DNA of 22,624 bases, from IMG/VR virus record IMGVR_UViG_2521172589_000007; one strand, 5' to 3'. Below, piece after piece: positions 3,001-9,000 of the stretch. The DNA is from a virus (taxonomy: Duplodnaviria > Heunggongvirae > Uroviricota > Caudoviricetes). The position numbers are program-made. Within the stretch, counting starts at the first letter, position 1. Every line of letters begins with the position of its first letter.

Positions 3001-6000
3001 AATCTGCACGCTTTTCTTGGTATTGGTAAAATGTTTGCTCACTGGATCAAGGACAGGCTGGGTGAATATGGATTCGTTGAAAATCAAGATTTTGTGATTG
3101 CTTGCCAAAATTGGCAAGCAAAAGGTAGAGGCGGTCACAACCGCAAGGAATACCACCTCACCCTCGACACAGCCAAAGAGCTTGCGATGGTTGAACGTAA
3201 CGAAAAAGGCCGCCAGATACGCCGCTACTTCATCGAGTGCGAAAAGAAACTTCGCAACATTCAGCCAGTACAAGCAGAACCACAGCCGCAATTCACAGCC
3301 GAGGAAATCATCCTCCTTTGCTACATGCAGCTCTGGATGGAAAAAGCCCAACAACTCAGTAAACAGCTATACCCCGTCATGAGAGAACTGAACTCTGATT
3401 ACTATGGAAAGCTGTTTGATCTGGCCTACGAAACTCGTCATATAACCAACCGGACTCGCGACACATTGCTCCGCGAAGCAGCAAAACTTGATCCCGCCAA
3501 CTATACGGTGCACAGGGCCAGAAGTATGCTGGCGCAACTAAGAGCAAGACAATTTGAATTCTGAAACCAAAGGAGCTTCGGCTCCTTTTTTCATGCCTGA
3601 AGGAAAGGAAAATGGCAGATATCATCGACAATGCCGCTGAAATCGAAGAATTGCAGCGCAATCTCTCCCTGCAAAAATACAAATCCGATAGTAATGCCCC
3701 ATCTGCTACTCATTGTTGCGAGTGTGGCGATCCGATAGATGAGCGGCGACGCCAGGCTGTTCGCGGATGCCGAACTTGCGCCAGTTGCCAGCAGGATATT
3801 GAACTTATCAACAAACAGAGAGGTGTGAAGTGAGCATAGACACCACTATAACGATCGATACGGCCCTCAACACAGGTCTGGCGCTTCTTGGTTATTTTTA
3901 CATTATGTTCTGCGCCGGGCGGTGGCTATCGCTGTTGTTACTGAAAAAATGGAATAAATGCCGTAAGCAGGATCAACGCCAGAAGGCAATGAATGCGTTT
4001 TCCGAAGCCTTCGGGATTGACAGCATGGAGCCAGGAGGTCCAGCTCGCGTAATTAGCAGAGGTGACGTTGTAATTCTTGTATACCGGAGCGAAGAGAAAA
4101 ATGAGCGAGATTAACTATCAGGTACTGCGTGAAAAGGCAGAAAAAGCAACGCGTGGTGAGTGGTCGCTCGAATATGGAGAGAACCGATTTGATGGTGATG
4201 ATGCACTAATTCATCGCGAGGCTGCTGGATATATTCCCATTTGCAGAATTGAAGGAGCACATCCTGAAAGCGGTTTCGATGAAGATTTCCAAATGGAACA
4301 GCAGGCCAATGCTGAATTCATCGCCGCAGCCAATCCGGCTACCGTGCTGGCACTGCTGAATGAACGGGAAAGAAACCAGCAATACATCAAACGCCGCGAC
4401 CAGGAGAACGAGGAAATTGCTCTTACGGTTGGGAAGCTGCGTGTTGAGCTTGAGGAAGTAAAACAACACGCTGAAGAATTATCCGAAACCAAGGCTGTTC
4501 GTAACCAATGGCGGCCAGATATTTGCCCAATAACCGGACGTACATTTTTCATGTGGATTGAGCATCCAACATTGGGAAATGTGCCGACATGTGGTGGCCC
4601 ATTAGATAGTTACACCATTCCAACAAAGGACGGTGACGGTGAGTTTTCATGTGAGCGTTACGATCATGATTTTGGCGGTTGGGTAGAAAGCGAATGTCTT
4701 GGGTTATATCTGATTGATGATAGAGAACAATGCAGGGTCTACGAACTGGAGGAACGCGTTAAAGAGCTGGAAACGCGGGAAGTTCATTTGCCGACTCGCT
4801 ACGGCCTTCGATATGGACATCCGATAAATGATGATGAGCGCCACGTCATGATACCTAAAGAAAATGGCAGTTGGCTTTACCTGATTGACCTAGAACACGC
4901 ATTACGCGTCGCTGGCATTCGCATCAAAGGAGAGTGATATGGCATTAACACACCGCGAACTCTGTCAGATTGCGTACAAGTTCCTTAAGCGCAACGGGTT
5001 CAAGGTTTGTTTTCATGACCGCTTTATAGCTGTAACCAGTACCGGAGAACAGCCAGATGCTATGGGATTCAGAAATTCAGCATCATGCCTGATAGAGGCG
5101 AAGTGTTCTCGTGCTGACTTGTTAGCAGATAGAAAAAAGCGTTTTCGTAAAAATCCGTCTCTTGGAATGGGCGACTGGCGATTCTTTATTAGTGAGCCGG
5201 GAATTATTTCAATTGAGGATTTACCACCTGGCTGGGGATTACTTCACGTTGTTAACGGAAGAGTACGGAAAGTACATGGGTGGCCCAAGGGTAATTGCTG
5301 TTGGGGTAATCCTGACGATAAGCCATTTACTGGGAATAAGCAGGTTGAATGCGATTACATGTTATCTGCATTAAGGCGCATGGAGTTGAGAGGGCACCTT
5401 AATGAAATATATGACGGTGTGATTGTTAATAAGAAAGAAGGAAACGCGGCATGATCACTATTACCAAAGGGCGACTGCTGACAATCAAACAGTGGCGCGA
5501 AACATACGGACCTGGTAGCAACGTTGTACTGCCAGCAGAAGAAGCGGAAGAACTGGCACGAATTGCACTGGCATCGCTTGAGGCAGAGCCGGTGGCGTGG
5601 AAGGTAACCTTCACGCAAATTGACCGTGAATATAACACGTTCACTGGTATGTATCCTGACAAAGCAGAAGTCGAACGGTGGGTGCGGCTGCATAAAGCAT
5701 GTAATTTTCGGGCAGATATAACACCGCTTTATACCGCTCAGCCAGTGCCGGTAACTCCGGATGGTTGGATAAGCTGTAGTGCGCGAATGCCCGCTCAAGA
5801 TGATTGGATTTTAATTTATTCAAAGCACGGCGAGTATATGGCAGGACAGGTAAAAGGGGAATACGTGGAGTTGAGCGACGGCACTTTATCGTGGTTAGGG
5901 AATGCCTTGTTCTGGATGCCGCTACCAGAACCGCCGAAGGAGGTACGCCAATGACCTAGCCTGAAGCATTTGCAATTGTAGTGGCTGCCATTTCGATCGC

Positions 6001-9000
6001 ACTGATTGTTTTTGCGATTTGCCGCTGGGGGTAAAATAGTTCACCTGCATGGAGATTTGATGCCGGGGAATTGTGGGGAGCATTCAAACCTCTCCCCTTC
6101 CCGGTTAAAGACTCCATTGCTTTGCGGTCAGAGAGATACATCAGCTTCATCAGCTTAATGAAACGCATAGATCCGCCATGCTTTTTCAGCAAATACGCTG
6201 CCATTTGCGCAACTTTTTCTTCATTAAACATAAATCGGCTCTCTGTCTCACATGAAATACTCTTTCTGACTATATGTTAATAGCTCCGGTTATTACAGGT
6301 TAATGTGTGTTTATTTCTTAATCAGCCCCGCACTTCCGTACGGGGCCATTTCTGTTAATCCACTCCCACTTTTTTGTTGTACTCGCGGTTAAACCGATCC
6401 ACGGCAACCTTCATATCCCGCTCTACCGATTTCACCATCGCCGCCTGCTGCGCCAGACTGAGAGAACTGTCGGCATAAATGGCATCGCGCTGTTTGCGCA
6501 AATCCTTCAGTCTCTTCCGGGTATCCTGCATAAGCCCGTTCATCAACAATTTTCCGTTGTTCTCGTCAATGAACGCCGTTCTTTCTGCACCGGTCAGACT
6601 CTTCAGCTCTGCGTGATACTGCGCAACCTCTGTCATCCGGTCGTACATCTTCTGCTGGTCTGCATACGGCATCACCTCACCCGAAATTTTCCCCAGGAAG
6701 GGCACCTGCTGTTCCGGTATATCAATACCATTCAGCGATTTCACCGCCGCATCCGTGGTTTTGGAAATGAAGCGCCCTGTCCCTCCGGAGATATAGTCAA
6801 TCCAGAATTTCAGCGATTCCGGTGTGATATCCACCGCGCCGGGACGATACTGGCTGCCACCTGAGAACGCATTCAGCCAGAATGCAAACGCCTTGTACGC
6901 TTCTGGCGTTGAACGTCTTCCCAGCTGGCTGTCAGGTTTTGGTGTACCAAACGGCATGTTCTCCTGGTAAATCTGCGCCCCCATGAAGTTTTCGTTCATG
7001 GCAAGATTCGCAAACGGACGCAGAATTGTCGGTGCTGCATTTTTCAGCAATGCCCCGGACAGCGTTTCCGACGTCTCACTGCCAATCGGGCTGAATGCCC
7101 CCAGGATACCACCGACAACATTACCGGCAGCACGGGACGCCGTCAGGTCACCAGCAGCCACACCTTCAGAGGTATGCCCGAGCAGGAAGAAAACGTTGTA
7201 CCCGTAAGGCAGAGGAATACTCCAGTACTCTCCGGCCCTGCCCCCGAACATCGATTTCATAATGACGAGGTTACGCTCTTTCACATGATACGGCACCTTG
7301 TCGTACCAGTTAACCCCGTCATCATCCTCACCCGCCACACTGCGGTTAAGCGAGCCAAGCAGATAACCCGCTCCCACAGCTGCAAGCGCGATTTTCTGCG
7401 GTACATTGAGATTCTTCCAGCGAAGGCGCTCCAGTAACGGCCCGTCGCCATTAAGATGTCCGAGCGTTCTCACCAGGTTTGCGGTCCCCTGAATGCTGGC
7501 GTTGGCAAACATATACAGCGAGTTCATCAGCGCTCCCTGCTCACCACGACGGTTAAAGTTCACCGTCATGTTTTTGGCAAGAGATGCCGCCTGCTGGCGT
7601 GACAAACCGGCATCACGGGCGTGTTTATAGGCAGAAAGACGCAGAGCGTTTTCAACCGCGCCGTTGGCATCCTCGACCAGGTTCAGGAACGAATGCCATG
7701 CACCGATACTCTGGCCTTTCCATCCGCCCTTCGCCAGCGACACAAGGCGATCCATTTCCTTCTGCTGGCCTTCAAGGTCACCCATGTTAAACCAGCCGGT
7801 TTTACCTCCGTCCTCAACAAACTCTTTCCACACTTTCTGCCACTGTGCGCCTTTGCCCGTGAGGGTTTTACCCCGCAGACTTGCGTATACGGCTGACATG
7901 GCGGAACGGCTGTCTTTCACCACAGCCAGCGCGGATAAGTTATCCAGCCCTTTCAGTTTGCCGTCGCTTCTTCCCTGCTCAGCCTTCAGGTTCATCACCG
8001 CAGTCTGCACGTCACGGATGAAGTTACTGACCAGAAATTCCGGGTTATACGACGTGTTCACCGTTGCCAGGAAGCGGTTAACTTTCCCCAGCGTACGGAT
8101 TACGGCGTTACTGGTTTCCGGCCCCATGTTCTTCATCGCACGCATCAGGCGCGGATCATGAAGTTTAATGTAGTAAGTTTTGCCGTCCTTTTTGGTGGTG
8201 AAGTAGCGATCCGCCATCATTGCCATCGGCACAGGGCGCTCGACAACTTCGCGAATGGTTTCACCAGTTTCCTGGTCCTTGCGCTCTGCAATCACACGCA
8301 TTGTATCCGGTCTGTCATCAGTGAATACCTGCCAGTAATCCTTGTCGGGATTATCCTGTACCAGTTTCAGGAAGGCGTTACCCACTTCATTTTTGCGATT
8401 GCGGATCAGCGATTCACTCAAATCCTGTATCGCCTGAGTGGAAGGAGACTGTGCGCGGGATGCACGCCCCATGGCCTGCTTACTTTCACGCCCGCCGATG
8501 GTGAATCCCTTGCCTGTACGTGGCTGTGACACCACACCGTCAACATCCTGCCCTTTCAGGGGGACGTAGTAACGGTAGGCTTTCTGCCAGGCATCCACCA
8601 CGCCGCTCTCTTCCAGTCCTGCCTCACGGATAATCTCACGGCGACGGGCCAGCATATCGTCAATAATCCCTGCCAGACGGTCATACTGTGCCTGTTTGCC
8701 GCTGTTACGCACACGCTGCATGATTTCCGCCGCTTCCGCGTTGGTCATCCCCGAACCGCCGTCCGGCATTTTCGGGTTGATTTTCGCAATATGCGCGTTA
8801 CGTTCCGGCGCGTGACGGGCGTAGAGGTACTCATCCAGATCGGCCTGCGCAATTTTGTAGTCCGCCAGCAATTTGGCCAGCGGCTGAACGTAGCGCTCCT
8901 TCATTACGTTCAGGTCGTTTTCCGCCTTCCCGTGGAAGAGTTCTTCAGCCATATAGGCGTTATTGCTGTCATCTATTTTTCCGCCAGTTTTACGGATATT

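Follow-up and report, generated by a model that had tools for sequence, protein, structure and literature searches.

A relic of a panA antitoxin gene, very probably without function, at a module boundary of a Shiga-toxin-type prophage

The 91-codon open reading frame (ORF) at positions 5956..6231 (minus strand) of the window, that is, of the whole 22,624-nucleotide stretch analysed here (IMG/VR virus record IMGVR_UViG_2521172589_000007), is very probably what remains, without function, of panA, the antitoxin gene of a PanAT-like cassette. It sits at a module boundary prone to recombination and is an ordinary gene remnant, not a working system. The source prophage is of the Shiga-toxin (Stx) type and belongs to the Sepvirinae (933W-like). 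The ORF, hereafter the stub, lies just 3′ of the gene for a 2783-aa polyvalent protein, the relatives of which are annotated as LPD5/LPD38 domain proteins, and starts 123 nt past the end of that giant gene, counted from its stop codon (Table 1). On the other side, 1 nt separates its own stop (5956) from that of the DUF551 gene (5954), with which the plus-strand accessory block (antirepressor, DksA-like, DUF4752, Ea22-like, DUF551) ends. A reading of the same DNA made from the sequence alone, here called the sequence-only reading, had placed the ORF where the late operon meets the accessory block, and this is indeed where it sits, with the giant late-block gene on one side and the accessory block on the other. 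The ORF is annotated as a CDS in RefSeq, where it is the ‘hypothetical protein’ WP_000481378.1 in Escherichia coli O104:H4 and relatives. Its GC content, 41% versus 51% for the whole window, is as expected for an acquired moron.

Table 1. Features of the panA remnant and its surroundings (window positions)
Feature	Position	Strand	Basis
Giant gene for the 2783-aa polyvalent protein, at the end of the late block	6355..14706	-	LPD38, LPD5, LPD1, MuF_C domains
Intergenic leader, conserved in all compared Stx-type phages	6232..6354	-	
panA (SocA/Panacea, PF13274) codons 1-40: MFNEEKVAQMAAYLLKKHGGSMRFIKLMKLMYLSDRKAME	6112..6231	-	tblastn and DNA identity to syntenic genes
Tandem 9-bp repeat AAGCTGATG, two copies, encodes KLMKLM	6139..6156	-	alignments, allele list
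Read-through tail, codons 41-91 plus TAG stop, without protein homology	5956..6111	-	
C4 run (C5 in the commoner allele)	6075..6078	-	DNA alignment with 75/02 Stx
74-nt orphan filler between the two junctions	6037..6110	.	
Spacer usually found 3′ of DUF551-type genes in lambdoid prophages, read antisense as distal tail	5955..6036	.	
DUF551 gene, convergent, last gene of the accessory block	5451..5954	+	

SocA of Caulobacter belongs with the Panacea/PF13274 proteins. PanA, the antitoxin of the PanAT type II toxin–antitoxin systems, is defined by the same Panacea domain (DUF4065/PF13274) (Kurata et al., 2022; PMC8832971). The first ~40 residues of the 91-aa product had been taken for the N-terminus of such a protein, and codons 1–40 (6231..6112) are the sole part of the ORF with protein homology. 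In tblastn searches, residues 1–40 of PanA from Yersinia phage YeP1 matched 6231..6112 with 72.5% identity (E = 4.7e-15), PanA of phage PhiR5_2 matched the window with E = 3.7e-12 and a Klebsiella PanA also matched codons 1–40. At the DNA level, the window is 98% identical to the syntenic PF13274 genes of PhiR5_2 and E. coli S1-KEN-03-A down to position 6111, and the identity vanishes past it. Database proteins sharing residues 1–40 bear PF13274. Judged from these comparisons, the match to Panacea is far above chance and is backed by synteny; chance resemblance was rejected on the tblastn E-values and the synteny. Residues 1–40 thus share common descent with bona fide PF13274 members and are homologous to the N-terminus of the antitoxins of the PanAT systems (PMC8832971). 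The retained part comprises the N-terminal leader and about the first 16 of the 113 Panacea profile positions (~14% of the domain). Within it, one copy of the 9-bp repeat is absent from 75/02 Stx, PhiR5_2 and several alleles, and the two-copy state agrees with the family consensus KLMKLLYL.

Little of the domain is left for profile searches to detect. Pfam hmmscan gave no family on the 91-aa product even at E ≤ 10, because only 16 domain residues remain, and there was no NCBIfam match to it either; the syntenic full-length protein scored 70.7 bits against PF13274 (E = 2.4e-19; gathering score 25.7 bits). The profile search that had been proposed as a check was negative on the truncated product and positive on its near-full syntenic copy. 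The domain core (profile positions ~17–113), suspected to be missing, is absent from the product, and tblastn with three full-length PanA proteins found no further PanA segment beyond about residues 40–49 in any frame of the whole 22.6-kb window. Homopolymer indels do occur in this stretch, as would be expected of a complete gene that is frameshifted or misassembled and whose Panacea domain goes on in another frame, but the probability of such a gene is negligible: besides the tblastn result, the DNA past 6111 does not resemble the syntenic full-length gene, the 155 nt from the breakpoint to the DUF551 gene are too few for the missing ~145 codons, and the same junction recurs in 43 independent complete genomes. 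We regard this explanation as already refuted by the tblastn searches, the DNA comparison and the recurrent junction.

Alignment to the intact syntenic homologue, likewise suggested by the sequence-only reading, placed the breakpoint exactly after codon 40 (6111/6110), and the DNA past it is unrelated to both PhiR5_2 and 933W. The 51-codon tail is not protein-derived. A HMMER search with the tail alone against 1.84e9 (1.84 billion) representative proteins returned two matches only, both translations of the same E. coli DNA. Half of the tail reads a conserved intergenic spacer in antisense: positions 5912–6034 are 85% identical to L005:2473-2595, which covers the 3′ end of a DUF551 gene and the spacer before a DUF4222 gene, and positions 5949–6036 are 75% identical to the 933W sequence just past L0139. 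The 74-nt filler (6037–6110) matches only 43 E. coli genomes and two Shigella phages, all with the same junction; the E. coli genomes, the phage collection and the retrieved loci yielded no other match. Through 1-nt indels the tail frame differs among sister alleles (60, 63, 103 or 51 aa), and a 1-nt difference in the C run decides between the 60/63-aa and the 91-aa frame of the tail. At least 1000 contigs carry the 63-aa allele and 508 have the 91-aa one, intact and identical; the +1 variant of the tail is carried by 25 of the 43 E. coli genomes with the junction. The earlier description of the tail as low-complexity did not hold up and was rejected, since its Shannon entropy is 3.74 bits versus 3.69 bits in the N-terminal part, and all 12-residue windows stay at 2.2 bits or above.

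A Shine–Dalgarno-like GAGAG motif precedes the ATG of the stub; a scan of positions 5800–6500 predicted no sigma-70 promoter, and the two ‘terminator-like’ sites in the ORF are no more than shuffled sequence would give. Given the intact ORF, the plausible Shine–Dalgarno motif and a predicted Q-antiterminated late read-through, the 91-aa peptide may well be made. Its intact and identical state on the 508 contigs and its listing in PHROGs as a full-length family are counterpoints to the relic view. Along with the Shine–Dalgarno-like motif, the RefSeq annotation and the full-length span of the PHROG 3658 match, they would suit a functional small chimeric protein, for instance a regulator or an anti-defence peptide, in which the N-terminal helix of PanA is joined to a novel tail. 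Such a protein is nevertheless very improbable, as PHROG 3658 and all full-length database relatives are E. coli/Shigella alleles of at least 97% identity with no divergent member among them, the tail is without another homologue and half antisense spacer, its frame shifts between alleles of which the 63-aa form is the commoner, and no promoter is predicted. The product does not belong to a different, complete small-protein family, an outcome that the sequence-only reading had allowed for: PHROG 3658 consists of near-identical E. coli/Shigella copies of the same allele.

The relatives of the gene point to the system from which the relic came. They carry a bicistronic unit in which panA comes first and overlaps by ~4 nt a conserved gene for a partner of ~135 aa; the two occur together in 18 of 19 loci that were retrieved independently, with PanA alone, and hold more distant full-length relatives. 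The pairing also occurs in Yersinia, Klebsiella, Vibrio and Helicobacter phages and in Shigella and Enterobacter contigs. The partner family, PHROG 19071, is conserved downstream of this PanA clade; searches of Pfam, NCBIfam, PADLOC and the PDB found no relatives of it, a literature search found no experimental record and a sequence search with full-length PanA gave no PDB match. The in-silico hallmarks of PanAT systems, namely genes at most 100 nt apart and an arrangement shared by different species (PMC8832971), are displayed by the full-length relatives in 18 of the 19 loci, on phages and prophages alike. The ~135-aa partner may match T5 or T6 among the predicted clusters of Kurata et al., who list the same Photorhabdus strain (PMC8832971), and the supplement of that study holds no match to the accessions of these proteins or to Stx phages. 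The lost partner is presumably a PanT-like toxin.

The absence of an adjacent toxin gene, which the sequence-only reading had pointed out, extends to the entire window, where no frame contains a homologue of the partner gene. Unlike a PanAT antitoxin gene (PMC8832971), the stub has the giant gene upstream and the convergent DUF551 gene on its other side, and it is a pseudogene remnant with ~16 of 113 domain positions. With so small a share of the Panacea domain and its partner missing, the product would be unable to serve as an antitoxin. Of the earlier proposal of a decayed toxin–antitoxin or defence-island remnant, the first half stands, on the partner in 18 of 19 loci of the relatives, and the second does not, as PADLOC matched neither the 91-aa ORF nor the full-length PanA or partner proteins.

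A near-complete panA occupies the same position after the same giant gene in 18 complete E. coli genomes as well as in Escherichia phage PhiR5_2. The locus as such was found in 176 of 5426 complete E. coli genomes, 18 of them with a near-full copy, 43 with the junction described here and most others of the 933W type. The PhiR5_2 gene (XSB41418.1; E. coli WP_032270877.1) resembles the stub in its position and in its leader and codons 1–40, which are 98% DNA-identical, but differs in keeping the whole domain (174 aa from M10; PF13274 over residues 16–127). It has defects of its own, with Q9 changed to TAA, one KLM repeat lost by a 9-bp deletion and only six partner codons left, and is followed by convergent IbrB/IbrA. 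The 933W remnant (31-aa ORF, PHROG 28947) shares the locus and has an identical leader and first 27 codons, whereas an internal deletion has fused codon ~27 to the last ~24 codons, which are out of frame; the 933W partner L0135 (PHROG 1925) survives as an in-frame, internally deleted 62-aa ORF, past which lie hok/sok and a YgiW-like moron. A homologue search with L0135 returned only itself and a 37-aa fragment, with no closely related full-length E. coli partner, and the literature search on 933W L0134, L0135 and hokW yielded nothing relevant. In another E. coli genome, an IS3 insertion interrupts the panA locus. Stx-type phages thus hold the panA cassette in four differently decayed states: a near-full orphan antitoxin, two genes with internal deletions, a replaced 3′ part and an IS insertion.

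Conceivably, panA at this locus was never a toxin–antitoxin gene and worked for the giant polyvalent protein, for instance as a chaperone or immunity factor of one of its domains, the stub being the leftover of that role. In Stx-type phages panA invariably follows the giant gene directly and in the same orientation, and its near-full copies there are without a partner gene. Yet this reading is hardly credible: PanA relatives of about 50% identity occur without the giant gene, in lambda-like tail operons, by integrases and at genome ends, and are followed in 18 of 19 loci by the ~135-aa partner; recognisable partner remnants come right after panA in 933W and PhiR5_2; and in most phages that have the giant gene, panA is reduced to debris. 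The immunity-factor idea was rejected.

The leader and the first 27 codons are 97–100% conserved in all compared lineages, none of the three deletion or replacement events reaches them, and a strong hairpin with a 10-bp stem (6324-6347; fold z −2.9) stands in the leader just past the stop codon of the giant gene. These features would be compatible with a stub and leader kept for a role in cis, in 3′-end formation or stability of the giant-gene mRNA, or as a small RNA, and not for protein coding. The flanking DNA of these Stx-type phages is also 97–99% identical, however, so that the conservation carries no information; the hairpin is upstream of the stub, not inside it; the leader contains no Rfam family (a scan of 5400–6800 gave two sub-threshold chance matches only) and no promoter; and the IS3 variant shows that the region can be destroyed. 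We give a cis role only the slightest chance. The sparing of the first 27–40 codons by three independent rearrangements could hint at a 5′ constraint, and proximity to the 3′ end of the giant gene explains it equally well. Survival of the stub in three independently rearranged Stx-phage lineages is also the ground for a broader proposal, that the leader and first 27–40 codons are kept for a reason, be it a short late N-terminal peptide or a cis element for the 3′ end of the giant transcript, which we hold to be very improbable. We grade it below another possibility suggested by these comparisons, namely that the ~135-aa partner of the relatives may be a PanT-type toxin family repeatedly disarmed by Stx phages.

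For the relic itself, the homology, the breakpoint, the loss of the remaining gene, the shifting frame of the tail and the pairing in relatives are direct results, while we infer the direction of events, the lack of function of the stub and the toxin nature of the lost partner, as follows. The ancestral cassette would have consisted of panA and, at about −4 nt, the gene for the ~135-aa partner, the presumed PanT-like toxin, and would have followed the polyvalent-protein gene closely, as a moron at the far end of the Sepvirinae late block. Deletion or illegitimate recombination would have removed everything from panA codon 41 on, including the partner and any accessory genes past it, and the stub would have been joined via the 74-nt filler to the spacer 3′ of the convergent DUF551 gene. 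Translation, if any, would start at the old panA ATG, pass through 40 authentic residues and run on in antisense spacer to the first in-frame stop, the length of 91 aa probably being an accident of a 1-nt contraction in the C run, since the commoner allele ends at 63 aa.

Consequently, the ‘hypothetical protein’ WP_000481378.1 drops off the list of possible functional Stx-prophage genes, and PHROG 3658 and PHROG 28947 are to be viewed as pseudogene translations. A single phage locus provides a natural series of decay states of a PanAT-like cassette, showing how a toxin–antitoxin moron erodes once its toxin is lost, and marks the junction of the late and accessory blocks of 933W-like phages as a recombination hotspot, while the conserved, uncharacterised ~135-aa partner emerges as a reasonable candidate PanT.

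The 91-codon ORF consists of the 5′ 40 codons of panA, the gene of a Panacea/SocA-like antitoxin, fused to non-coding DNA. A Panacea/DUF4065 profile match to its product was obtained only in part: Pfam gave no match, even at E ≤ 10, and phrog_1281 (PHROGs; a 195-aa family) matched residues 1–41. Relatives with residues 10–40 in common, retrieved in a search of 5.8 billion proteins, carry PF13274, and tblastn of one relative against phages revealed a near-full panA in Escherichia phage PhiR5_2, at the same position directly after the same giant gene. The PhiR5_2 protein contains the SocA_Panacea domain (PF13274, E 2.4e-19, residues 16–127 of 174) and matches phrog_1281 from end to end. 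Two PanA proteins with ~50% identity to it, one from Yersinia phage YeP1 and one from a Klebsiella phage, align to window positions 6231..6112 (E about 5e-15). By these alignments, the N-terminal ~40 aa are truly Panacea-like, as the sequence-only reading had proposed.

The breakpoint could be located by DNA alignment and by blastn against near-full homologs. The window is 98% identical to PhiR5_2 and Escherichia coli S1-KEN-03-A from position 6700 down to 6111, the first base of codon 41, and no similarity to either was detected below 6111. The adjoining 6037–6110 segment is a 74-nt filler, present only in 43 complete E. coli genomes and two Shigella phages, all with the same junction, and is followed by the spacer normally found 3′ of DUF551 genes (5955–6036; 85% identity to an O103 prophage, where it lies between DUF551 and a DUF4222 gene, and 75% to phage 933W after L0139). 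An exhaustive HMMER search with the tail only, against 1.84 billion representatives, returned just two matches, both translations of the same DNA. The comparisons indicate that the last 51 codons have no protein origin; contrary to the earlier description, the tail is not of low complexity when measured. Sister alleles differ by 1 nt in a C run (6075–6078), by another indel of 1 nt and by one 9-bp unit of the KLM repeat (6139–6156), and consequently stop at 51, 60, 63, 88 or 103 aa, with different tail frames; the 63-aa allele occurs on at least 1000 contigs versus 508 for the 91-aa form. Because a single base separates the convergent stop codons (DUF551 TGA, 5952–5954; TAG on the minus strand, 5956–5958), the 91-aa frame ends only on meeting the DUF551 terminus. 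We consider it very improbable that this ORF encodes a functional chimeric small protein. On one short contig, an ORF call (P0007) reads through the stub and runs on antisense into DUF551. No further PanA fragments were found in any frame of the whole 22.6-kb window, confirming that the expected Panacea core is missing; a complete panA gene disrupted by frameshift is accordingly a highly unlikely alternative to the truncated one.

Coordinates of the features in the window and at the compared loci
Feature	Location	Position	Strand	Remark
91-codon ORF	window	5956..6231	-	MFNEEKVAQMAAYLLKKHGGSMRFIKLMKLMYLSDRKAME then SLTGKGRGLNAPHNSPASNLHAGELFYPQRQIAKTISAIEMAATTIANASG
Giant 2783-aa ORF	window	6355..14706	-	stop 123 nt before stub start
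DUF551 gene	window	5451..5954	+	convergent with stub
Hairpin, perfect 10-bp stem	window	6324-6347	-	GGCCCCGUAC-GGAA-GUGCGGGGCU; 8 nt past giant ORF stop
Molybdopterin oxidoreductase, ynfF-like selenate/tellurate reductase subunit	window	1-2397	+	host gene
Ail/Lom-family outer-membrane protein gene	window	18342-19079	-	among tail genes
Gutted panA/partner cassette	933W (L002)	2734-2922 and 2934-3082	-
Only ‘intact’ Panacea genes at locus	PhiR5_2 (L003); L004	3733-4284; 5561-6112	-
~135-aa partner genes	L008; L009; L011; L012; L013-L039	4541-4948; 4531-4938; 560-958; 3045-3461; 

The window represents the end of a 933W-like (Sepvirinae) prophage and, given the host ynfF-like gene, crosses the prophage–chromosome junction. 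Shigella phage 75/02 Stx shares 98.6% identity with the region, and E. coli O104:H4 matches positions 5940–6250 at 100%. The integration neighbourhood is shared with S1-KEN-03-A; that of the O104:H4 Stx2a prophage differs, yet its stub copy is identical. The Ail/Lom gene is the virulence-associated moron that lambdoid and Stx phages usually carry. The giant ORF displays a polyvalent-protein architecture (LPD38, LPD5, LPD1 and MuF_C domains), and its product includes an HExxH-like motif, LAHEWFHSLD. We know of no established function for this protein in Stx phages, and the notion that panA served as its immunity factor merits hardly any credence. No sigma-70 promoter was predicted between 5800 and 6500, and transcripts covering the stub, if any, would stem from late-operon read-through. 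The hairpin, conserved in all Stx phages compared, is devoid of a U tract and may be a 3′-end or stability element rather than a canonical intrinsic terminator; no Rfam family matched the stub region, and a cis-acting role of the stub appears most doubtful.

A conserved ~135-aa protein, phrog_19071, is encoded just a few nucleotides after the PanA homologs of Yersinia, Klebsiella, Vibrio and Helicobacter phages, and the pair resides within lambda-like tail operons on Shigella and Enterobacter contigs. In an independent retrieval with PanA alone as query (one genome per GTDB species), this family lay directly downstream of PanA in 18 of the 19 loci, the two genes overlapping by 4 nt in most cases; the partner is shortened at two Photorhabdus loci (L023, L024). 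The family (PHROG 19071; motifs HLHxIC..DP, VLxVNI and GxHxFxKHxS) has 351 detectable database members, every one annotated ‘hypothetical’, and no relative in Pfam, NCBIfam, PADLOC or PDB. The architecture agrees with the way in which Kurata et al. (2022; PMC8832971) defined PanAT modules in silico, and the family, a candidate PanT toxin, may correspond to predicted cluster T5 or T6 of that study. As noted previously for the immediate surroundings of the stub, no toxin partner is adjacent; there is no trace of a partner homolog anywhere in the window.

The locus is carried by 176 of the 5426 complete E. coli genomes, 43 being of the window type and most of the 176 of the 933W type. In 933W and most Stx phages, an internal deletion in panA has fused codons 1–27 with the final ~24 codons in the wrong frame, yielding a 31-aa ORF (PHROG 28947). 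L0135 of 933W (62 aa, PHROG 1925) aligns just to residues 5–15 and 91–134 of the YeP1 partner and hence appears to be a partner gene with an in-frame internal deletion, so that both cassette genes are gutted in classical Stx phages. PhiR5_2 and 18 E. coli genomes retain the entire Panacea domain, but codon 9 has changed from CAA to TAA, with an ATG right after it (restart M10), a 9-bp deletion has removed one KLM repeat unit and only the first six partner codons are left before a junction with convergent IbrB/IbrA, a ParB-like and PAPS-reductase-like pair (IbrA weakly matches BrxP and DndC in PADLOC). A fourth independent decay route is an IS3-family insertion in E. coli S1-CAM-02-A (L007, 3735–5337), which cost panA its 5′ half and the giant LPD5 gene its 3′ end; what remains there of panA is a C-terminal ORF of 95 aa, a ‘SocA family protein’.

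The earlier view of a decayed gene remnant at the late/accessory boundary was thus essentially right. The fusion would have arisen by deletion or illegitimate recombination at this convergent boundary. With about 14% of the Panacea domain left and no partner, the stub most likely has no mechanism at all. The feature is of an already known kind; its side value lies in the documented erosion series and in the pointer to an uncharacterised ~135-aa family consistently linked to PanA in relatives.
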